From an uncultured archaeon (GTDB lineage Archaea > Thermoplasmatota > Penumbrarchaeia > JASLWR01), in the NCBI GenBank assembly GCA_964342815.1, contig CAYFHS010000007.1:80754-144753 (forward strand): a DNA stretch of 64,000 nt, in the 5' to 3' direction. Position numbers and translations under genes: made by a program. Below, one piece after another: positions 10,222 through 64,000 of the stretch. Numbering within the stretch: the first letter of the stretch is position 1; every line of letters begins with the position of its first letter. The notes beneath the pieces are model-generated. The model saw nothing but the letters and a program-made list of their open reading frames with translations. It had not been told where the DNA came from and did no database searches.

Positions 10222-11007
10222 GTGTTAAATATGTCCGATCATAATTACTACGCTGGTATTGACGTCGGTACATCTTACGTCAAGATGGTCTTATTGGACA
10301 GAGACAATCGAATTATCGCTTCTCATATCGAGCGCTCCGGGGCGGTTCTTCAAAGATCCATCAAATCGGCTTATGACGGGGTTCTTTCCGTTTCAGGACT
10401 TCTTGAGGACCAAATTACTCATATCACGGCCACTGGATTCGGCCGAAAGAATGTGAATTTCGCAGACAGCATAAAGACGGAGATAAGCTGCCACGCCAGG
10501 GGTGCTTATTACCGTTTCGGTGAAGCCATCACGGTCATTGATATCGGTGGGCAGGATACAAAAATAATCAAAGTCGCCAAGAACGGCAAATTGCTTAATT
10601 TCAAGATGAACAGAAAATGCGCAGCCGGTACGGGTTCGTTTCTCGAAGAGATCGCTCTGAAAATGAATATCCCAATGGAGGAAATGAACGACCTGGCTGC
10701 CAGCTCTGATAATACAACGGCACTTGGGAGCTTCTGCACTGTCTTTGCCTCTTCTGAGATGCTCACGCGCATTCAGAATGGAGAACGGGTGGAGGATATG
10801 GCAAAAAGCGCCTATGAATCTGTGGTAAGACGTGTGATTGAGATGGACGTTTTTCATGGAAAGTTGGTTATAAGCGGCGGCGTGGTCAAACACAATCGGG
10901 TTATCGTCGATATACTGGAAAGACAGCTCGGGAAGGAAATCTCAATCGCTCCCAGTCCGCAGCTTACAGGGGCATTCGGAGCAGCACTTTTTGCAGGTGA
11001 AAACTGA
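10222..11007 (+). CDS. 2-hydroxyacyl-CoA dehydratase activator (HgdC/BcrA/D family ASKHA ATPase, [4Fe-4S])
   Basis: GIDVGTS, TATGFGR, EISCHARG, IDIGGQDTK, MNRKCAAGTGSFLE, FCTVFA, GAFGAA. Confidence 0.93.
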   Translation: MLNMSDHNYYAGIDVGTSYVKMVLLDRDNRIIASHIERSGAVLQRSIKSAYDGVLSVSGLLEDQITHITATGFGRKNVNFADSIKTEISCHARGAYYRFGEAITVIDIGGQDTKIIKVAKNGKLLNFKMNRKCAAGTGSFLEEIALKMNIPMEEMNDLAASSDNTTALGSFCTVFASSEMLTRIQNGERVEDMAKSAYESVVRRVIEMDVFHGKLVISGGVVKHNRVIVDILERQLGKEISIAPSPQLTGAFGAALFAGEN

Positions 11008-54050: not shown

Positions 54051-57000
54051 TTGGCAAGAAATCCCGAGAAATACGTCCTGATAATGGCTCTTTTAATAAT
54101 ATTGATCGTTGTAGCTGCGGTCTTTTCATCAGCTGTTCAAGGAGAACCGTCTAATGAACGAACAACCGAGCGCGGTCGGGCTCCATGGGTTCCGTTCAGG
54201 TCAAGCATTAGCAGTATTAACGTGACTGTGGATATCAATCATTCCTTTACCACCACGGCAATTGAGCAGGTTTTTTACAATCCATTCAGGCGCCCGCTCA
54301 GCGATACTTTCATGTTCAAGGTCCCTCAAGATGCCTTTATTACGAATTTCTCGGTTGAGCTCGATGGTAAGATACATTACGCCGGGCTTATGGAGAAGGC
54401 GAAAGCGGAAGAAAGCTACCGGGATGCCGTGGCAAAGGGGCATTCCGCCGGATTGCTGCTGTCGAGAGATACCAGAAAATTCCCATTCAGCCTCAATTTC
54501 GCTCCCTCCCAGGTCATAAAATGCCGGTTGATATACGAAGAATTCACTTCATTATACCTCGCTCGATACAAATATGATCTGTTCCTGCACGGCATCAACG
54601 GTCACAGAATTGTTCCCAGTCTAAATATCAACATACGTGTAAATTCTCTCGTTCCATTGAGCGGGATTAACGCCACGGGTAATTTTAAAGATCCGCAAAT
54701 TAAGTGGGAATCCCCGGAAAAATGCAATATCATTTTCAGTGAAAACGACGTCAAAAAAATATCCAATCTATTCTTCAGGTTCGAAACCGCAACGCCTCCC
54801 CTTGGCGGGAGGTTAATGAGCTGCGAACGTGATAATAAAACGTATTTTCTTCATCTGTTCTCCCCCACACAGGACAGCCTCGGAGCACTTCCCATAAACA
54901 AGAACATCATCTTCGTGCTGGACAAATCAGGTTCCATGAGCGGAACAAAGATAAAACAGCTCAGATCCGCGTTCTCGGACATAATTCAGTCCCTGGACCG
55001 GAGTGATTCCTTCAACGTGATAATGTTCGACAGCTACATCAAGAAGTACTCGGAAGAGCTGGTCCCCGCATCCGGCGAGAACCGGTCCGGTGCCATCAAA
55101 TATGTAAATAATAAAGTTGCTTCAGGATGTACCAACCTCTACGACGGTACGGCCTTGGCCATGACGCAACTATCGATGGCTTTATCTGAAAATAATTACA
55201 AAATGCCTCTGGTCATAATGCTTACCGATGGTCTCGCGAACCGGGGTGAATTCATTTCGCCCAATTCAATTCGTAATAATATAAGAAAACTGAACGATTT
55301 CGATGCGACCCTGTATTGTCTGGGTTTCGGGGATGACGTGGACTTCGATCTGCTGAATCAGATGGCTCTCGATAACAACGGAATGGCCCGGAAGATCTAC
55401 ACCGACACCGATGCCGTGGAACAGCTGGTGGAATTCTACAGGATGGTCTCCACCCCGCTGATGAGAAATCTGACATTTTCATATTCGGGAAGCGGTATCG
55501 AGGTATACCCGGATAGGATGGATTGTCTTTTCGACGGTTCGGAAGTTATAGTGGCGGGCAGGACTGACGGTGTCATCGAATCCCTGGACTCCACCGTTAC
55601 GGGACAATACAGTGACGGGAGGATCAGTATATCGTCCAATTTCGATATCGAATCCCTGAACGAAAGCGATATCGTCCCACGATTCTGGGCATACAAAAAG
55701 ACAATTCACCTGATGGATCGGATAAGCAGGGAAGGGGAACGGGAGGAATTTGTCGATGAAATAGTGTCCCTGTCGCTGGAGTTCGGTTTCCTCACCAGAT
55801 ACACCGGATTCTTCGTCGATGTTGGCTCTTTCACAGAGGGTAGCGGGTCCTGGAATGGGTACCCGGAAGATTGGGCGGACGATCCCTGGGACCCCGGAAA
55901 CAACGGCGGGAGCAGTGGCTGGGATCCAGGAAATATGGGAACCGATCCCAATAATGAGGACACCGATAACGACGGAATACCCGATTGTATCGATCCGGAT
56001 CCACTGGATTACGGCGGCGATCCAGAGGACTGGGGAAATTACGACTATGATCACAATGGAATACCCGATAACGAAGAACCGGATAATCCCCACGCGGATT
56101 CCGACGGCGACGGCTTGACTAACCGGCAGGAAGCCGAGAACGGGACGGATCCCCTCTACTGGGATACCGACGGTGACGGGATCGGGGACTGGTACGAGGT
56201 GTTTTACGGTTCCGACCCGTGTGACCCTGAATCAACCCCGGACACGGCAGACCCCGATGATGACGGATTGTCGAACATATTTGAGCGGGAACTGGGCACG
56301 AATCCACATGATCCGGATACGGATTCCGACGGATTGGACGACGGGCAAGAACTGGAGTGGCGCACGAATCCCTTCGATCAGGATACCGATAAGGACGGAC
56401 TATCGGATGGCATGGAAATCGATTTTAGCTGTGATCCGCTTTTCGGTGACAGCGACAACGACAGCTTTTCGGATGGATTCGAGGTACTGAGCAGTACAGA
56501 CCCAATGGACCCCCAATCGTTCCCGGTGCCTTCCGATACCGATTGCGACGGACTGTCCGATATCATTGAGCGGGAGATTGGCACCAATCCCTTTGACCCT
56601 GACAGCGACGATGACGGTTTTCTGGACGGGGACGAGGTCAGGGTGGATCATGACCCCCTGGACGCCAGCTCGCATCCGCCTTACTGGGATATGGACTGCA
56701 ACTTCATAATGGATCAATTCGAGCCCGAAAATCCCAATGCGGACAGCGACGGAGACGGCGCGCTCAATGCCCAGGAGACGCAGTACGGCACCGATCTTAT
56801 GGATAAAAATTCCTTTCCCGTTTTTGCGGAAAACGGCGATACCATGGAATCTGCGGATGATAATCGATATATTATGAACCGATTAAATTCAGATGGTGAC
56901 AGCGACGGCTTCTGCGACGCTTTCGATTTTTATCCGTATGATCCGGAAAGGTGGAACGGTCCCGTCGAGCTATGTGACAGGGACGGTGACGGGGTTGCGG

Positions 57001-57662
57001 ATCGGGATGACACGTTTCCATACGATCCTGTTGAATGGGCCGACGCTGACGGTGACGGAATCGGGGACAACCATGACCTATTTCCACTGGATCCGGAGGA
57101 ATGGATGGACACGGATGGCGACGAGCGGGGGGATAACAAGGATGCATTCCCCTTTAACTCATTCGAATGGAGCGATGCCGACGACGACGGTTGGGGTGAC
57201 AATATAGACGATTTTCCAAACAACCCCGACAGATGGGAGGATACCGATGAAATTACTGGCGGAGCCTTCGATGAAAAGACCGCGAGTAAAAAAGGTACGC
57301 TTCTTGATAATCCGTTGATTGCAGGAGACTTCTTGAGTGAGAACGGCGGTGACAACGACCCTATGCTGATCAATCTCGGGCAGTACATTCGTGAGGAAGA
57401 AGAGGATGAATTCGAATCCATTGAAACCAATAATGGAAACTTGAAGCAGGAAAGTTCGTCATCAGGGGATCCCTGGTTCATAATTCTCATAGTCCTTTGG
57501 ATAATAATCGCTGCCGGAGTAGTTGTGATAATCCTTCTCAGTATGAACTCGAAAAGGGAGTCCGATAATCTTGATGAATATCCGGACAAAACCGGGCGGG
57601 TGGTACGGGAAATACCTATAAAAAACAGATACCTGCCCCGTGACCAGTATATCGCAAGATGA
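54051..57662 (+). CDS. VIT + vWA domain surface protein with TSP3-like repeats and a C-terminal TM (ITIH-like)
   Basis: VIT (FTTTAIEQVFYN, FMFKVPQDAFI); vWA MIDAS DKSGS, T and LTDG; FLTRYTGF; Ca-binding repeats; TM WFIILIVLWIIIAAGVVVIILL. Confidence 0.88.
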   Translation: MARNPEKYVLIMALLIILIVVAAVFSSAVQGEPSNERTTERGRAPWVPFRSSISSINVTVDINHSFTTTAIEQVFYNPFRRPLSDTFMFKVPQDAFITNFSVELDGKIHYAGLMEKAKAEESYRDAVAKGHSAGLLLSRDTRKFPFSLNFAPSQVIKCRLIYEEFTSLYLARYKYDLFLHGINGHRIVPSLNINIRVNSLVPLSGINATGNFKDPQIKWESPEKCNIIFSENDVKKISNLFFRFETATPPLGGRLMSCERDNKTYFLHLFSPTQDSLGALPINKNIIFVLDKSGSMSGTKIKQLRSAFSDIIQSLDRSDSFNVIMFDSYIKKYSEELVPASGENRSGAIKYVNNKVASGCTNLYDGTALAMTQLSMALSENNYKMPLVIMLTDGLANRGEFISPNSIRNNIRKLNDFDATLYCLGFGDDVDFDLLNQMALDNNGMARKIYTDTDAVEQLVEFYRMVSTPLMRNLTFSYSGSGIEVYPDRMDCLFDGSEVIVAGRTDGVIESLDSTVTGQYSDGRISISSNFDIESLNESDIVPRFWAYKKTIHLMDRISREGEREEFVDEIVSLSLEFGFLTRYTGFFVDVGSFTEGSGSWNGYPEDWADDPWDPGNNGGSSGWDPGNMGTDPNNEDTDNDGIPDCIDPDPLDYGGDPEDWGNYDYDHNGIPDNEEPDNPHADSDGDGLTNRQEAENGTDPLYWDTDGDGIGDWYEVFYGSDPCDPESTPDTADPDDDGLSNIFERELGTNPHDPDTDSDGLDDGQELEWRTNPFDQDTDKDGLSDGMEIDFSCDPLFGDSDNDSFSDGFEVLSSTDPMDPQSFPVPSDTDCDGLSDIIEREIGTNPFDPDSDDDGFLDGDEVRVDHDPLDASSHPPYWDMDCNFIMDQFEPENPNADSDGDGALNAQETQYGTDLMDKNSFPVFAENGDTMESADDNRYIMNRLNSDGDSDGFCDAFDFYPYDPERWNGPVELCDRDGDGVADRDDTFPYDPVEWADADGDGIGDNHDLFPLDPEEWMDTDGDERGDNKDAFPFNSFEWSDADDDGWGDNIDDFPNNPDRWEDTDEITGGAFDEKTASKKGTLLDNPLIAGDFLSENGGDNDPMLINLGQYIREEEEDEFESIETNNGNLKQESSSSGDPWFIILIVLWIIIAAGVVVIILLSMNSKRESDNLDEYPDKTGRVVREIPIKNRYLPRDQYIAR

Positions 57663-57882
57663 TGGGAAGGATGACTTTGCAATGATTGGCTCGAATTCCC
57701 GTATGGCGGTAAGGACCATTTTTCTTATTTCCTAATTCCAAATAACTCGATGTGCAACAAAAATTCAACCGACCCCGCGGAACTTCTTTTATGCCGTTAG
57801 CGATTTCCGAAAAAATTTCCATGCGAAACTAATTATAATATTCTTTTCAATATTGTTTATATTATTACCAAGCCCGGTGAAG

Positions 57883-59229
57883 ATGATGATGTCTACTAAA
57901 CAAAAGTATCTAAGCGCGGCTGTGATCGCTGGATTGATGGTCATTACTTCAGTTTTCATAGTTAACTTCTCAGTAAACGAACCCGAAGATAAGATTGCTG
58001 AGGAAAAACACGTGGCAAAATGGACCTCCTTCTTCTGGTTATGCGGCGACGGAAATCTCGCTGACTGGAACATGATGCTTTGTAATCTTCATTATCTTGA
58101 GATGGTTGAGAACAGCGAGGACGTAAATCTCATCGGGATACTGGACCGGAAGGAAGATGGTGATACAAAGCTTCTGAAGATCGAAAAAGGAAATTCCACG
58201 GAAATGCCCATCACCCTTATAGACGAGACCTGGACCGACAGCGAACTTAACCTCGGTGACCCGGAACACCTTTTAAAGTTCCTCACCTGGGGTGCCGATA
58301 ATTACCCTGCCGAAAACTACAACATTCATCTCGTGAACCACGGCGGCGGTTGGCGGGGCATGTGCTGGGACGAGAGCTCCAACGATCATCTTTCGCTGCC
58401 GGAGATCAGAGAGGTTTGCGAGGGAATGAAGGAGCACGTGGGGAAGAACGTGGATATCCTGTCCACTGAAGGCTGCCTCGTGGGAATGCTCGAATTCGGG
58501 TATGAACTTCGGGAAAGCGTGGATTACTTCATCGGCGGTTCCACATATGGGTGGGGGGCGGAGGCCGAACCCGATAAGGACATTTGGGATGCCGGGAACT
58601 GGCAGTATGATGAATGCTGGGGCCGCCTTGTGGAAAACCCGTCAATGAGCCCTGAAGAACTTTCACTGGTGATGGTCGAAACATTCAAACCATACGGCCC
58701 CTGGACCGCGCCTCCATTCATACCCAAGGAAGGCTATTCCGACGTTATGGCCGCTTACAATCTATCGAAGATCGAAAATCTGACAACTGCCGTGGATTCC
58801 ATGGCCCGCGAGCTTCTTGGCAAGGTGACCGGCCCTGGCCAGGCCGTGCGTCAGGCGAATCTCATAAACCACGTCATTGGTCATCCTGAACTGCCCGACT
58901 GTCAGTATACGGAGTATTTTTCAGCCCAGATGGACTGGATTGGTTTATCGACATACACGAACTTCGACCTTTACGATTTTGCCCTTCAGCTTTCCAAACC
59001 AGCCTCGGCAACCCTACAAAATTCCCATTCGGATGACGTTATGCAGCTGGTGGAAGAGACCGTAATGGCTTACAGGAACGTGGAAGCCGACGGCGGGCAC
59101 CCCGATGCTCACGGTATTTCCATCTACATACCGTACAGGTCATCGGAATACAATCCCGATTACGAGGAGATACAATTCGCACAGGACACCCAGTGGGACG
59201 AGTTTATAAAAGCAGTCCACTGGACGTGA
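57883..59229 (+). CDS. Clostripain-family (peptidase C11) cysteine protease
   Basis: WGADNYPAENY, NHGGGW (His), TEGCLVGMLE (Cys), HGISIYIP, WDEF. Confidence 0.88.
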   Translation: MMMSTKQKYLSAAVIAGLMVITSVFIVNFSVNEPEDKIAEEKHVAKWTSFFWLCGDGNLADWNMMLCNLHYLEMVENSEDVNLIGILDRKEDGDTKLLKIEKGNSTEMPITLIDETWTDSELNLGDPEHLLKFLTWGADNYPAENYNIHLVNHGGGWRGMCWDESSNDHLSLPEIREVCEGMKEHVGKNVDILSTEGCLVGMLEFGYELRESVDYFIGGSTYGWGAEAEPDKDIWDAGNWQYDECWGRLVENPSMSPEELSLVMVETFKPYGPWTAPPFIPKEGYSDVMAAYNLSKIENLTTAVDSMARELLGKVTGPGQAVRQANLINHVIGHPELPDCQYTEYFSAQMDWIGLSTYTNFDLYDFALQLSKPASATLQNSHSDDVMQLVEETVMAYRNVEADGGHPDAHGISIYIPYRSSEYNPDYEEIQFAQDTQWDEFIKAVHWT

Positions 59230-59635: not shown

Positions 59636-60811
59636 ATGAATCCCGAGATTACTATTTGCATATTACCGGACAACCGGATGATAACAATGTTTCCCTACAA
59701 TTCCCTATACAATGCAAAGATGCGATGCATCGAGGGTTCACGATGGCACGAGACTGGCAAGTTTTGGAGCTTACCGTACGAAGAGAATGTACTTGAAAAA
59801 ATAAAGGAAAAATTCAGTCGACAGAATATTATCATCGACTATTCTCTGGCAGAGCAGCCGCAGGTAAACGAAAGACAAACAAACGGAGCCTGGTGGAAAG
59901 AGATAAAGGAAACCGCAAAGAAGGAGCTTATGCTCAGGGGCTACAGTCCAAGGACCAGGCGGGTGTATATGGATCACATAAGACGCTTCTCTTTCTATCT
60001 GGAGAAGTCACAAAAAAATCTGGGAGCGGAGGTGGTTCACGATTACCTGATGAACCTCCTTGAGCGAAAGAAAGCGGTCCTATCATATTACAACGTCGCC
60101 GTCAGTTCATTGAAGTTCCTCTTCAGGTACGTTGTGAAACTGGACGAGGTCTGGCGCTCTATAGAAAGGCCCAAGCCGGAACACAGACTTCCAACAGTCA
60201 TGTCCAGAGATGAGGTAATGAGATTTCTTCTTGCACAGCGCGATCTCAAGTACAAAGCCATTTTCATGCTTGTTTACTCATCAGGTATCCGGGTCGGTGA
60301 AGCGGTAAAGCTAAGAGTGGAGGATATTGATGGGGATCGGAAGATGCTTCGAGTCAGAGGTGGGAAAGGAAGGAAAGATCGGTACACCATACTCTCCACG
60401 GTGGCGCTTCAAGCGTTCTCTGACTATTTAGAAGCCTACCATCCTGAAGGAAAATGGCTTTTTCCCGGAAGAAACGAAGGGAAACACCTCACCCCAAGGG
60501 CAATAGAGATAATGTTCAAGGAAGTGGCAAAACGTGCTAAGATAAAAACGGACGCAACGGTTCACACGTTAAGGCACAGTTTCGCCACCCATCTTATTGA
60601 GCGCGGGATAAACCTGAGATACGTTCAAGAGATGCTCGGTCATCGTAAACCGGAAACAACCCAGATCTACACACACGTGTCGCGAAAGGACATGGCGGGG
60701 ATAGAGAGTCCATTGGACAGTATCTTCGCTGTGGAAAAGAATTTGAAAAATGAAAAAACTGTACGTGAAATACGAGAATCACGACATTTCGACGAAAATG
60801 AGGTTCATTAA
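59636..60811 (+). CDS. IntI-related tyrosine recombinase lacking the IntI-specific insertion, with an extra N-terminal domain
   Basis: SAM-like LRGYSPRTRRVY; catalytic R (SGIRVGE), K (GGKGRKDR), HTLRH, LGH and Y (TTQIYTHV); IntI-like SPLD tail. Only 60 aa lie between KDR and HTLRH. SD GGTGGTGA. Confidence 0.9.
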   Translation: MNPEITICILPDNRMITMFPYNSLYNAKMRCIEGSRWHETGKFWSLPYEENVLEKIKEKFSRQNIIIDYSLAEQPQVNERQTNGAWWKEIKETAKKELMLRGYSPRTRRVYMDHIRRFSFYLEKSQKNLGAEVVHDYLMNLLERKKAVLSYYNVAVSSLKFLFRYVVKLDEVWRSIERPKPEHRLPTVMSRDEVMRFLLAQRDLKYKAIFMLVYSSGIRVGEAVKLRVEDIDGDRKMLRVRGGKGRKDRYTILSTVALQAFSDYLEAYHPEGKWLFPGRNEGKHLTPRAIEIMFKEVAKRAKIKTDATVHTLRHSFATHLIERGINLRYVQEMLGHRKPETTQIYTHVSRKDMAGIESPLDSIFAVEKNLKNEKTVREIRESRHFDENEVH

Positions 60812-60887
60812 TATATTCCATACCAGATTCTTGACAATCAAGTGGTTGAGGAAGAGTTTTTTTCGCAGAATACGGGGATATACCGGT

Positions 60888-60927
60888 TTTTACGAACTTT
60901 CTAGTCGGCAATAGGGGAGTTATGCGT
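60888..60927 (+). other. attI-like primary recombination site, predicted crossover G60919|TT
   Basis: GTTATGC core 108 bp after the recombinase stop, complementary to the first attC R''. Upstream TACGAACT and GGCAAT-agggga-GTT form a degenerate simple site. Confidence 0.6.
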
Positions 60928-61129
60928 AATTTAACACACCCCACCCAGGCACACCCGATTTGAATTGTCCTTCTTTAGAGGGATAATGGGGATCCAAGAT
61001 ATAACGAAGAAGAGTTTGAATTATCCGCTATCATTTCAGGCATCCCTGATGAGGGATGGCCTGAACTGGTGAAGAAATTGTCCGCTTGTAGCAGATTTTA
61101 TATGGCAGTTTAGCGATAAGGATGACGAG

Positions 61130-62524
61130 GTGTATGACATAGCAGAAGCCACATTGTCCCAGTATCTCCAAAATGGGGAAGGAGAGACCGTTGAATTCAA
61201 GGAAATTCTTCCCAATAAGGAAACTTTGGCGAAGATATTTTCCGCTTTTGCCAACAATATGGGTGGAACCCTTCTCGTTGGAATCTCTGACTGTGGAGAT
61301 GTCATCGGGGCGTCCTTGAATGACTCGATCAACAGACTCATTGTCGATGTAGCTTCGAACAATTGTGAGCCTCCAATCAGAGTAAAGGTTTCAAAATTAC
61401 ATGATGAGGTAAAAGAGATAATCGCAATTCATATCCCGAAAGGTAAACGTCTTCATTCTGTTAGAGGTCGATGTTTTCTACGAGTTGGATCAACCATCCG
61501 AAGGCTAACAATGGATGAGATACAAAGGGCTATGTTCGAAAAAGGGATGTTAGAATTCGATAAGATGCCAGTAAATAACGCTACGTTTGATGATGTCGAT
61601 GAAGAAAAAGTGAAATGGTTTTTAAGGAAGGCTCAAGCAGAACGGAATTATAATGTTGACCCTAAAACACACTTTAAGGAGGTAATGGAAAGGTTACACC
61701 TGATAGAAAATGGAAAGTTGACAAGTACTGCCATCCTCATGTTTGGAAAGGATCCGCAGAGATTTTTCCTTCAATCAAGAATCAAGTGTGGGCGATTAAA
61801 AGGGACTGATGGATTGGATTTTCTTGATATGAAGGTTATCAAAGGAACCATTCCCGAATTGAGAAATGGGGCAATGAAATTCATTACAAATCATGCTCGT
61901 CATGGAATTTATTTCGATGATAATCAACGACATGATCGATGGGAATATCCATTGAGAGCTCTTGAGGAAGTATTGAACAACGCCTTAGCCCATCGCGACT
62001 ATTCCTCAAATGCAGATATTCAAGTATCCATTTATGATGACCGGATAGAGGTTTGGAATCCCGGCGAGCTATTAGAGCCGTTGACACCTGCGGACTTAAA
62101 GAAAAAACACAACTCCATTCCAAGAAACAAATTACTCGCGGGGACAATGTTCTTGATAAAATATATTGAAGAATGGGGGACAGGTACCAACCGTGTCATG
62201 AAAAAAATGAAGAAATATCATCTTCCGGAACCTGAATTTCAAAATATATCAGGAGGATTCGAAGTATTGCTAACCGGACCAGGAGAGAGTTTTAAGGACA
62301 AGATCGGTTCTGACGATTTACCTATTCTTGACATCAATGAACGACAGAGGAAGGCACTTGAATATCTTCATGAAAAGGGAAGGATAACAAGATCGGAATA
62401 CTGTAAATTAACCAATTTAAAAGCAACTCAGGCAAAAAAAGAAATCAATATCCTTATCAGGAAGAAGATAATAAAGAGAATTGGTAAGGGTCGGGCGACA
62501 TATTACACTTTAGCGACCGATTAA
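61130..62524 (+). CDS. Cassette 1 gene: Schlafen/AlbA_2 domain + 'RecG C-terminal'/HATPase-like domain + winged helix
   Basis: GEGETVEFKE, SAFANNMGGTLLVGISD, EEVLNNALAHRDY, DDRIEVWNPG, RNKLLA, EEWGTG, C-terminal GRITRSEY..GKGRATYY. Confidence 0.88.
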   Translation: MYDIAEATLSQYLQNGEGETVEFKEILPNKETLAKIFSAFANNMGGTLLVGISDCGDVIGASLNDSINRLIVDVASNNCEPPIRVKVSKLHDEVKEIIAIHIPKGKRLHSVRGRCFLRVGSTIRRLTMDEIQRAMFEKGMLEFDKMPVNNATFDDVDEEKVKWFLRKAQAERNYNVDPKTHFKEVMERLHLIENGKLTSTAILMFGKDPQRFFLQSRIKCGRLKGTDGLDFLDMKVIKGTIPELRNGAMKFITNHARHGIYFDDNQRHDRWEYPLRALEEVLNNALAHRDYSSNADIQVSIYDDRIEVWNPGELLEPLTPADLKKKHNSIPRNKLLAGTMFLIKYIEEWGTGTNRVMKKMKKYHLPEPEFQNISGGFEVLLTGPGESFKDKIGSDDLPILDINERQRKALEYLHEKGRITRSEYCKLTNLKATQAKKEINILIRKKIIKRIGKGRATYYTLATD

Positions 62525-62553
62525 CGACTGATTAGCGACCGATTAGCGACCGC
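62510..62553 (+). repeat. 11-bp tandem repeat TTAGCGACCGA x4 spanning the cassette 1 stop codon
   Basis: Copies at 62510, 62521 (TTAACGACTGA), 62532 and 62543. Confidence 0.85.
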
Positions 62554-62666
62554 AAATCTGAAGGATAGGTTTTAAGCGGATAATTCAAAGAAAGAGAAGG
62601 ACAATTCAAATTTTACCCCCGTCCGTATTAAACTCTGCGTCGCTACGCTCCTTGGCCCTAACGGGC

Positions 62667-62773
62667 ACGCATAACTAACGAGTTCTCGACTACGCACGAT
62701 ATTTTCATTCGTGCTCCGTCCAAATTACCTCCCTTCGGTCGGAAACTTCGAGAACCCGCCAGCCGTTATACGA
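62667..62773 (+). other. attC-like site 1
   Basis: R'' GCATAAC (62669-62675), L'' GTTCTCGA (62682-62689), inner hairpin GCACGA..TCGTGC, L' TCGAGAAC (62748-62755), R' GTTATAC (62765-62771); 103 bp core to core. Confidence 0.8.
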
Positions 62774-62950
62774 AATATCGACACCGTCTTACGATAAATA
62801 TAAGAAAAAGTTTGGTGGACGTTTAACATCCAAAGAAAAATCCTGTCCTTCATCAAGTCCAAAGTTGAATGAGATTGTATCTCATAGTAAAGTTATTTCA
62901 GTAATTATTAAGTACATATATGTGCATACACGTATTAAACGGGTGATAAA

Positions 62951-63175
62951 ATGGTCAGTATGACACTAGCAATACCGATAGAATTGAAGAGACAGATGGA
63001 TGGATTCCCTGAAATAAACTGGTCAGAGACTGCGAGAATCGCGTTTAGAGAGAAAGTAGAAGACCTCCGGTTTTTACAGGAGTTCAAATCTAAAAGTGAT
63101 ATGACCGAAGAAGACGCGTTGGAGTTGGGAAGAAAGGTAAACAAAGCTCTTCAGAAAAGATATGAGGAGAGTTAA
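62951..63175 (+). CDS. Cassette 2: archaeal RHH-type antitoxin
   Basis: MVSMTLAIPIELKRQMDGFPEINWSETARIAF; SD GGGTGA; upstream TATA-like TTATTAAGTA and near-palindrome GTACATATATGTGC. Confidence 0.85.
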   Translation: MVSMTLAIPIELKRQMDGFPEINWSETARIAFREKVEDLRFLQEFKSKSDMTEEDALELGRKVNKALQKRYEES

Positions 63176-63177
63176 TA

Positions 63178-63588
63178 ATGGATTTGGTGGTGGATGCCAA
63201 TTCTTTCTTCGCAGCACTTATAAAAAGTGGAGAAACAGAACGGTTATTCTTCGTAGATCAGTTACATTTCTATGCTCCAGAATTCCTGATAGATGAGATT
63301 GAAAAATATCGACATACATTGTTAAGAAAAACTCACCGTTCGGATATAGAGTTCGAAAGGTTCATGCGAACCTTGCAGAAAAAAATACATTTCGTACCGA
63401 TGGAGGAAATCAAACCTCTAATGCCGATTGCTCGAAAAATATCACCCGACCCGAATGATACTACGTATTTCGCAGTCGCGTTGAAAATTGGAGCATCCAT
63501 TTGGTCGAATGACAAACCTTTAAGAAGTCAAAATAAAGTTCGAATATATACGACGAAAGAGTTGATTGACCTTTTTCCTGCTGTTTGA
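63178..63588 (+). CDS. Cassette 2: PIN-domain (VapC-like) toxin
   Basis: VVDAN, IDEIEKY, DPNDTTY, WSND acidic PIN residues; translationally coupled to the antitoxin. Confidence 0.9.
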   Translation: MDLVVDANSFFAALIKSGETERLFFVDQLHFYAPEFLIDEIEKYRHTLLRKTHRSDIEFERFMRTLQKKIHFVPMEEIKPLMPIARKISPDPNDTTYFAVALKIGASIWSNDKPLRSQNKVRIYTTKELIDLFPAV

Positions 63589-63795
63589 AATCCATTACAA
63601 GAGCTTGTTTTGATAGTATCCACTCGAATTACTCCAAGCATCGAGATTTTATTTGGGTTTCGGACAGGATTATATAAAAAATTAAGTAAGAAAATACGTC
63701 CACGAAAAGAGGACTATCGTAAGAGGACCGGAAAATCTTTGTTTGGTGGACTTCTTAAAAGCAGCAAGAGGAAAAGAAAGAGCGAAGGAAATCCA

Positions 63796-63939
63796 TCGCA
63801 TAACTCAGCTTTTCAGAAGTTCTCCAAGAATATCTTGAAGAACTACACCCCCAAAACGATTTCCCGGCGTTGCCGATAAACTGCGTCGTCGCGACGCTCC
63901 TCCTTGGCCCTATCGGGCTCGTATAACTAGCCGTTAAAT
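63796..63939 (+). other. attC-like site 2, degenerate or collapsed
   Basis: TCGCATAAC (63796-63804), hairpin AGTTCT-C-CAAGA..TCTTG-A-AGAACT, a 27-bp motif shared with site 1, and TCGTATAAC-TAGCC-GTTAAAT (63919-63939). Confidence 0.55.
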
Positions 63940-64000
63940 GCTTAGGTCTAAGGGGATAACTACAAGTATTAAATTAATAGACGATAAACTAATATTCCCA

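Follow-up and report, generated by a model that had tools for sequence, protein, structure and literature searches.

Can an integron be run by a tyrosine recombinase that lacks the very domain by which integron integrases are recognised? In the literature, and in IntegronFinder, these enzymes are defined by the additional domain I2, which is held to be necessary for attC recombination, and the published view is that its gain was the step enabling recombination of single-stranded attC sites. The question is raised by a 64,000-nucleotide stretch of DNA from an uncultured marine archaeon (Thermoplasmatota; Penumbrarchaeia; GenBank assembly GCA_964342815.1, contig CAYFHS010000007.1, positions 80,754 to 144,753), here called the window, in which a gene for a 391-aa tyrosine recombinase is followed by an array of integron-type cassettes. 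An earlier reading of the letters of the window (the original prediction) had proposed a cassette-capture platform driven by this recombinase. Our analysis supports the view that the element is a chromosomal integron in a Thermoplasmatota archaeon, with all the expected structural features except the one that defines the integrase. The genome measures 4.35 Mb in 116 contigs, is 88.9% complete, and carries an archaeal 16S gene (1,513 bits against the archaeal small-subunit rRNA model). The window is the final 64 kb of contig C7, and the locus therefore lies at a contig end.

A cassette array beside a recombinase gene

The array starts with G|TTATGCGT at 60919, 108 nt past the stop codon of the recombinase gene and on the same strand, and the crossover would be expected between 60919 and 60920. 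This attI site adjoins the candidate integrase gene and comprises an L box, TCGGCAATAGGGGA, followed by an R box, GTTATGCGT; a repeat-like motif further upstream (60863-60879) was identified by eye. The non-coding attI stretch is conserved in homologues that are 76% and 85% identical. The four inverse 9-mers on which the original prediction was built were all present: GTTATGCGT at 60919-60927, ACGCATAAC at 62667-62675, GTTATACGA at 62765-62773 and TCGTATAAC at 63919-63927. The R'' of cassette 1, ACGCATAAC, inverts the attI core exactly.

After an initial profile search, we built a covariance model (R1) from 19 sites, and with it found 20 attC sites in the genome. Their common architecture is R'' (GYATAAC), 3 nt, an 8-bp L'' stem, a branched centre, L', 6 nt and R' (GTTAYRC). 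Across 27 modelled attC pairs, 87% of the cells are paired, compared with at most 40% when partners are slid, and two-sided changes occur in five of the eight L-stem pairs. Alignment, covariation and folds thus agree on imperfect inverted repeats (R''-L''/L'-R') that form a hairpin with an unpaired spacer, as in integron attC sites. The attC of cassette 1 scores 75.3 bits with R1 (E 2.4e-15). It had been described as a 103-bp attC-like hairpin, and it does measure 103 nt and fold as an attC: its bottom strand, at -22.5 kcal/mol (z = -4.35), pairs R'' with R' and has a 12-bp L stem and an unpaired bubble. The top strand folds less well (-15 kcal/mol), a difference between predicted folds that is only suggestive of bottom-strand recombination. 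The third proposed site, at 63919, held up as an inverse 9-mer; as an attC it is incomplete in the window, where the contig deviates from 63934. Its complete form, 123 nt long, is found in a sibling assembly (L012) and on contig C69 of this genome.

The search beyond the 64 kb that had been called for showed that the array continues on two further contigs. Overlaps order them as the end of C7, then C69 reversed, then C14 reversed, and together the three contigs hold 12 attC sites over ~18 kb. These attCs resemble one another, with a mean column identity of 67%. In 11 of the 12 cassettes, R'' matches the 9-mer that starts at the G of the preceding R' (or of attI) at 9/9 positions, whereas it matches the R' of its own cassette at only ~8/9. 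A 9/9 match to the preceding core is what a crossover at G|TT produces, and the 3' part of each R' therefore belongs to the next cassette. This G|TT boundary was found here and in eight other loci. The array is thus of the integron type, as predicted, with its attC architecture, its G|TT boundaries and an attI adjoining the recombinase gene. The two cassettes in the window also carry the single cargo modules that had been announced, namely an AlbA_2/HATPase_c_4/winged-helix protein and a toxin-antitoxin pair of a ribbon-helix-helix (RHH) antitoxin and a PIN_2 toxin. Since the recombinase gene is co-oriented with the array, it could be a source of read-through transcription into the cassettes.

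Cassette content differs between closely related assemblies. Two public assemblies, L011 and L012, encode an identical recombinase, and L012 equals the window base for base through 63933. L011 and L012 have 11,291 identical bases in common, from RuBisCO through the recombinase gene and the intergenic stretch to GTTATGCG. At this point L012, like the window, carries five cassettes in a 5,955-bp block bordered by GTTATGCG, whereas L011 goes straight to the sixth cassette; the two are identical again for at least 3,930 bases past the block, whose edges have only the 8-nt core in common. Independent assemblies from several samples gave both arrangements, one in L012, L014 and this genome and the other in L011. 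Variation exactly at a G|TT point, which the original prediction had looked for, is therefore present, and cassette turnover at attI appears from these alignments to be recent. Other contigs with the same gene end 120-147 nt 3' of it, and in general contigs often end 12-300 nt past the gene, as expected if arrays vary between strains.

Solitary or degenerate attCs also occur off the main array of G000, on C1 (~202 kb), C2 (three sites, 82-84 kb), C4 (15.9 kb), C18 (26.4 and 27.7 kb), C42, C47 and C68. One of the C18 sites is collapsed, with R'' followed after 4 nt by GTTATGG, and the C4 copy retains the 5' hairpins and breaks within R''.

The recombinase and its relatives

The recombinase matches Pfam Phage_integrase (1.4e-41) and Phage_int_SAM_4. 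In the profile check that had been proposed, it stayed below the cut-off of the IntI model TIGR02249 (203.5 bits against 265), aligning in two pieces that skip model positions 169-233. The claim that the protein lacks the IntI insert was upheld by this comparison and by the interval between the KDR and HTLRH motifs. Recounted, this interval is 60 aa in the recombinase, as first reported, and 57-63 aa in family members, against 100 aa in IntI1 (reference sequence taken from a plasmid record; the original prediction gave about 100). The protein does end in ...SPLD, the IntI-like terminus noted at the outset. Structure comparison gave the same picture, as the recombinase aligned with Pyrococcus abyssi XerA (4A8E) in a single stretch, and with VchIntIA (2A3V) in two stretches, between which it is ~41 aa shorter. 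The AlphaFold model has a Xer-like body with no additional helix between the beta hairpin and helix 287-300, which is the I2 position. The IntI-specific additional domain (I2, near patch III) is thus absent from this enzyme. In the family alignment, the catalytic residues R219, K247, H310, R313, H336 and Y345 are invariant.

The enzyme is not a typical XerA in its architecture either. It passes the cut-off of the NCBIfam model XerA_Arch (NF040815) marginally, with 222.4 bits against 220 over model positions 5-259 of 263. XerA proteins have two domains in ~270-300 aa, whereas this protein has 391 aa, with an additional folded domain of ~70 aa and a linker.

This additional N-terminal domain appears to be HARP-like. 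AlphaFold, run with family alignments, gives residues 1-68 a beta-beta-alpha-beta-beta-alpha-beta order (pLDDT, the predicted local confidence, ~90), followed by a disordered linker. Pfam HARP (PF07443) matches 15 of 23 family N-termini, with a best E of 7.7e-5; that of the window copy has no PF07443 match at E <=1. The top match of a family profile against the PDB was the HARP domain of SMARCAL1 (4O66, E 0.08). Structural comparisons of the domain with VIA-align gave Z 7.3 for the UvsW N-terminus, Z 6.1 for the XPB damage-recognition domain and Z 4.2 for HARP (root-mean-square deviation 1.9 over 48 residues), all within that tool's noise range. Foldseek likewise gave E values of 0.1-0.2, within its noise range, and no match at E <=0.001. 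The ESM Atlas returned only Bacteroidota clusters without names, and a fold search with the whole model returned Xer and IntI structures only. The likeness to SMARCAL1, UvsW and XPB thus lies in the fold class and sequence pattern of the N-terminal 70 aa, and it is weak in the window copy; those proteins are helicase fusions, whereas here the partner is a tyrosine recombinase. HARP, the UvsW N-terminus and the XPB domain all bind DNA in a structure-specific manner, which would suit a role at a folded site. We regard this possible role, and the HARP-like assignment itself, as a lead rather than a result.

Homologues of the recombinase had been predicted to lie beside attC-type sites, and such an association was found in several phyla. 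Among the 37 genomes of the class, five others carry full-length homologues, and in four of these the contig ends 48-313 nt past the gene. The same-genus copy and homologues with 41-44% identity have GTTA-type cores ~100 nt past the stop codon. In G005 (44% identity), the gene is followed by an attI, GTTAGGCGA, one open reading frame, and an attC with R'' TCGCCTAAC. A homologue of 47% identity has an attI plus an attC scoring 65 bits, and its two samples diverge at the R' of this attC. The 76% homologue, which comes from another metagenome, lies in another neighbourhood but has kept the 110-nt attI stretch.

That neighbourhood (L016, 11167-21167) has the attI followed by RadC, and on the opposite strand a ResIII helicase, an N6_N4 methyltransferase and a UvrD/PD-(D/E)XK protein. 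The genes past RadC resemble a defence island.

As R1 was too specific, giving nothing at the 76% homologue and little in bacterial loci, it was broadened to a second model (R2, 47 sites), which we applied to 80 loci from GTDB species genomes. R2 gave 22 attC matches in eight loci, all of them either downstream of the gene on the same strand or upstream of it on the opposite strand. We also used a test that needs no model, in which a GTTA 20-230 nt past the stop codon must have an exact inverse 9-mer downstream, with a hairpin and a GTT required next. It was positive at 9 of 30 sites (9 of 22 loci), compared with 32 of 1,291 control sites (2.5%), and the positive loci belong to Spirochaetota, Gemmatimonadaceae, Aquiflexum, Flavobacterium, Polaribacter and Algoriphagus. 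The attI signature and the cassette rule are thus shared by homologues from Spirochaetota, Bacteroidota, Gemmatimonadota and other Thermoplasmatota. The approximate motif before the crossover, TCGCAnATAnnGGA|GTTA, recurs 3' of homologues in many phyla, and often one or two similar copies, noticed by eye, lie further upstream of it.

Short homologues (266-273 aa) without the N-terminal domain, in G026 and G027, are divergent to their arrays. The attI motif recurs on their 5' side, the cassette rule is matched 9/9, and one cassette measures 4.7 kb. In both genomes (loci L042 and L044) the only XerA-like gene found (E <=1e-40) adjoins the attC array, and a possibility there is that XerA itself doubles as the integrase. 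Between the attI core and the first cassette of L042 (G026), ~10832-10925 is masked as N.

A canonical IntI might have accounted for the sites from elsewhere in the genome. Our searches of this genome and of the full set of 37 class genomes, among them the 11 with attC matches, gave nothing above the TIGR02249 cut-off. Nor was a canonical IntI found in four of five bacterial genomes with arrays next to long forms of the recombinase. The fifth, a Gemmatimonadaceae metagenome-assembled genome (MAG; L055, L154; CAWBNF010000001.1), has a long-form recombinase with eight attCs of another type and, 1.3 Mb away, a canonical IntI (343 bits). After this IntI comes a separate array of about nine sites of an attC type unmatched by R2; both recombinase genes are co-oriented with their arrays. 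The separate arrays and attC types indicate two systems in this MAG, each with its own sites.

One class relative (L149, G012:C206:1769-2386) has a 232-aa recombinase fragment with ~88 aa between RDR and HTLRH and matches IntI model positions 92-306 without a break. The gene may be IntI-like and carry the insert; the G012 genome gave no attC match.

In a phylogenetic tree of a small sample, XerC/D-type proteins split from all others with 100/100 support. Four IntIs form one clade (98/99) placed among the short forms, and the long forms do not make up a single clade. IntI is poorly sampled by these four sequences, as a homologue search with IntI1 gave only its close relatives, and two 'XerA-like' rows were disregarded for absurd branch lengths, being probably mis-extracted. 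The tree is compatible with IntI as a derived branch of the insert-less lineage, without establishing it.

Which enzyme serves the array

We consider it probable, from the arrangement of gene and sites, that the adjacent insert-less recombinase runs the array. In our model, the integrase is this same-strand tyrosine recombinase, a member of a widespread lineage related to XerA and IntI and marked by a SAM_4 core-binding domain, an IntI-like C-terminal SPLD tail and the lack of an I2 insert. It would bind attI, with its L box, R box and upstream repeat-like motif, ~100 nt past its own stop codon, and recombine it at G|TT with the folded attC of circular cassettes; new cassettes would therefore enter beside the gene. 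Excision would occur by attC x attC or attI x attC events, and we infer that recombination proceeds through a single-stranded, folded attC. In canonical integrons, the I2 helix reads extrahelical bases. Here the HARP-like domain might help to recognise the folded, branched attC or an accessory site in attI, and so act as a stand-in for the I2 helix.

The likeness to canonical integrons, those of IntI1 and of VchIntIA in the Vibrio cholerae superintegron, is extensive. It includes an attI by the integrase gene, tandem and mostly single-gene cassettes, toxin-antitoxin cassettes, attCs of the form R''-L''...L'-R' with an unpaired central bubble, and the G|TT rule, as well as the SAM_4 N-domain and SPLD tail of the integrase. 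In contrast, canonical IntIs have an insert of ~40 aa with the I2 helix, whereas here there is none and a HARP-like N-terminal domain is present instead. The recombinase gene also lies on the cassette strand, and the attCs have an extra 5' hairpin and a three-way-junction centre. Co-orientation of integrase and array is known from the inverted-integrase integrons of Spirochaetes, Chlorobi, Cyanobacteria and others, whose integrases are nevertheless reported in the literature to have the additional domain; the canonical IntI of the Gemmatimonadaceae MAG is another example with a co-oriented array.

Integrons in Archaea have been described before. The archaeal attC arrays of Ghaly et al. 2022 (Sci Adv, PMC9668308) were reported mostly as clusters of attC sites lacking integron integrases (CALINs); the six IntIs found in 75 genomes were accepted for carrying the IntI domain and had attI just downstream of intI. 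Their arrays, like ours, lie in archaeal MAGs that include Thermoplasmatota E2; unlike ours, no Thermoplasmatota IntI is listed, and the present enzyme, without the IntI domain, would be uncallable there. In complete genomes, Cury et al. 2016 judged recombinases that lack intI_Cterm and lie near attC not to be IntI. It is plausible that standard finders would call the present array a CALIN, as the original prediction supposed, since the table of the 2022 survey gives Thermoplasmatota E2 genomes with 4-16 attCs and zero IntI (PMC9668308). Our literature search, which left most subscription journals outside its reach, found no description of integron integrases without the domain.

The main alternative takes the recombinase for the host's XerA dimer resolvase and the 'attI' for its dif site, at which cassettes hitchhike like integrative mobile elements exploiting Xer (IMEX), or gives the enzyme both functions. 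The XerA_Arch cut-off is passed, the best solved relative is P. abyssi XerA, and this is the only XerA-like gene found in the genome, as in G026 and G027. XerA and the single-recombinase systems XerH/difH and XerS/difSL also lack an I2 insert, and in the latter two dif lies beside the gene; the CTX phage integrates as a folded single strand, and IMEX insert at dif. However, long-form genomes of Bacteroidota, Spirochaetota and Gemmatimonadota also encode ordinary XerC/D-type proteins, so that the long-form enzyme would there be an extra, dedicated one. The conservation of the 76% homologue and its site in a different neighbourhood suits a portable module better than a terminus-bound dif. The mobile elements are promoter-less single-gene cassettes with attCs that follow the G|TT rule, unlike the phage-like IMEX, and the N-terminal extension has no counterpart in the Xer systems. 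On balance, we find this alternative unlikely.

The array could instead be a CALIN served in trans by a canonical IntI, encoded on unassembled DNA or in another cell, with the neighbouring recombinase unrelated to it. The genome is fragmentary enough for this (88.9% complete, 116 contigs), and bacterial IntI1 recombines a Thermoplasmatota attC in Escherichia coli (Ghaly et al. 2022, table S1, PMC9668308). Yet canonical IntI was found in none of the 37 class genomes, including the 11 with attC matches; attI is physically tied to the gene family, in both orientations and across phyla; and the one genome with both enzymes has a separate array and attC type for each. We therefore give service in trans quite a low probability. 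An inactive fossil array, whose five-cassette difference came from homologous recombination, replication slippage or mis-assembly, is very improbable, for although the attCs resemble one another and repeats can be collapsed in metagenome assemblies, attI and the far-edge attC have only GTTATGCG in common, which is too little for exchange by homology, the break coincides exactly with the canonical crossover core, separate assemblies of several samples gave the two arrangements, and the recombinase is intact with all its catalytic residues.

Several points weigh against the adjacent recombinase as a dedicated integrase. With 2 bits to spare it clears the XerA equivalog cut-off, and no second XerA-like gene was found in the 88.9% complete genome; the enzyme may therefore be, or double as, the chromosome-dimer resolvase. 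The same completeness leaves room for a canonical IntI on unassembled DNA. The closest homologue outside, at 76%, has no attC within 10 kb by R1, even with filters off, and the long-form loci L067, L076, L113 and Persicobacter gave no chain or model match over the 4-10 kb downstream. On the complete Persicobacter replicon, both R2 and the 9-mer walk were empty, as they were at several Bacteroidota loci. The deep nodes of the small tree are unresolved. The HARP assignment of the window copy depends on its relatives and on weak fold scores, and since short forms without this domain also lie at arrays, the domain is dispensable for the system.

What the data suggest is a coherent lineage without the domain, marked by an attI signature and attC families of its own and by recent turnover of cassettes. 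Whether this insert-less lineage, often with a HARP-like N-terminus, runs true integrons in Archaea and many bacterial phyla is a wider proposition that we hold to be evenly balanced. If it is true, cassette recombination at folded attCs is possible without the I2 helix, canonical IntI is a derived branch inside the insert-less lineage, and the HARP-like domain is a second, independent way to recognise folded or branched sites. A large share of 'CALINs', most archaeal ones included, would then be complete integrons with an integrase that present tools discard by definition. Confirmation would change integron censuses, which list only six IntIs across 75 archaeal genomes that have attC arrays, and would offer an explanation for many orphan arrays. 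It would also provide a natural test of what a recombinase requires to act on folded DNA sites.

Features of the window

Table 1. Coordinates of the recombinase gene, attI, cassettes and associated features in the window.
Feature	Position	Strand	Evidence or remark
Tyrosine recombinase, 391 aa	59636..60811	+	Candidate integron integrase; IntI-specific insert absent
N-terminal extra domain, aa 1-70, HARP-like (putative)	59636..59845	+	AlphaFold; Pfam matches of relatives
SAM-like core-binding domain, aa 95-169	59918..60142	+	Pfam PF13495, 3.9e-12
Catalytic domain, aa 190-350, without I2 insert	60203..60685	+	Pfam PF00589
attI region	60812..60927	+	Repeat-like motif 60863-60879; L box 60905-60918; R box GTTATGCGT 60919-60927
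Cassette 1	60920..62765	+	From attI G|TT to the G of its own R'
Cassette 1 cargo, 464-aa AlbA_2 (Schlafen-type)/HATPase_c_4/winged-helix protein	61130..62524	+	PF04326 5.7e-20, PF13749 7.4e-25
Small conserved hairpin directly 5' of R''	62654..62666	+	GGCCC-TAA-CGGGC; not in canonical attC
attC of cassette 1, 103 nt	62669..62771	+	R'' 62669-62675, L''/L' stem, branched centre, R' 62765-62771
Cassette 2	62766..64000	+	Starts TTATACGA; R'' TCGTATAAC at 63919 is its exact inverse
Cassette 2 cargo, RHH/VapB-like antitoxin, 74 aa	62951..63175	+	NCBIfam VapB 4.2e-5 (below cut-off); PF26688 RHH_12 on identical gene
Cassette 2 cargo, PIN_2 toxin, 136 aa	63178..63588	+	Pfam PF10130, 4.9e-24
5' hairpin and R'' of cassette 2 attC, truncated here	63906..63933	+	Identical to L012 through 63933
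Anomalous contig tail outside attC	63934..64000		48/67 bases differ from L012

The small hairpin directly 5' of R'' is present in 17 of 18 attC sites, and two of its pairs keep pairing with two-sided changes, in 9 and 4 sequences. Its consensus is GGNCC-TAnC-GGNCC (window 62637-62666 and 63883-63918), and many sites have a second hairpin farther upstream. These 5' hairpins could be a terminator or a protein-binding module.

According to the sibling assembly, cassette 2 extends ~37 nt beyond the end of the window. The contig tail from 63934 to 64000 is AT-rich and is possibly a chimeric contig end or a minority junction. It was also considered as the end of an insertion sequence; no second copy was found in the genome.

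An Rfam scan of the window gave a tRNA as its sole match, and no family matched the attC sites. Upstream of the recombinase gene, 54051-59229 holds two genes, for a 1,203-aa VIT/VWA protein rich in thrombospondin-type-3 repeats and for a peptidase C11 (clostripain-like) protein; both are kept in the sibling assemblies and have no relation to the array.

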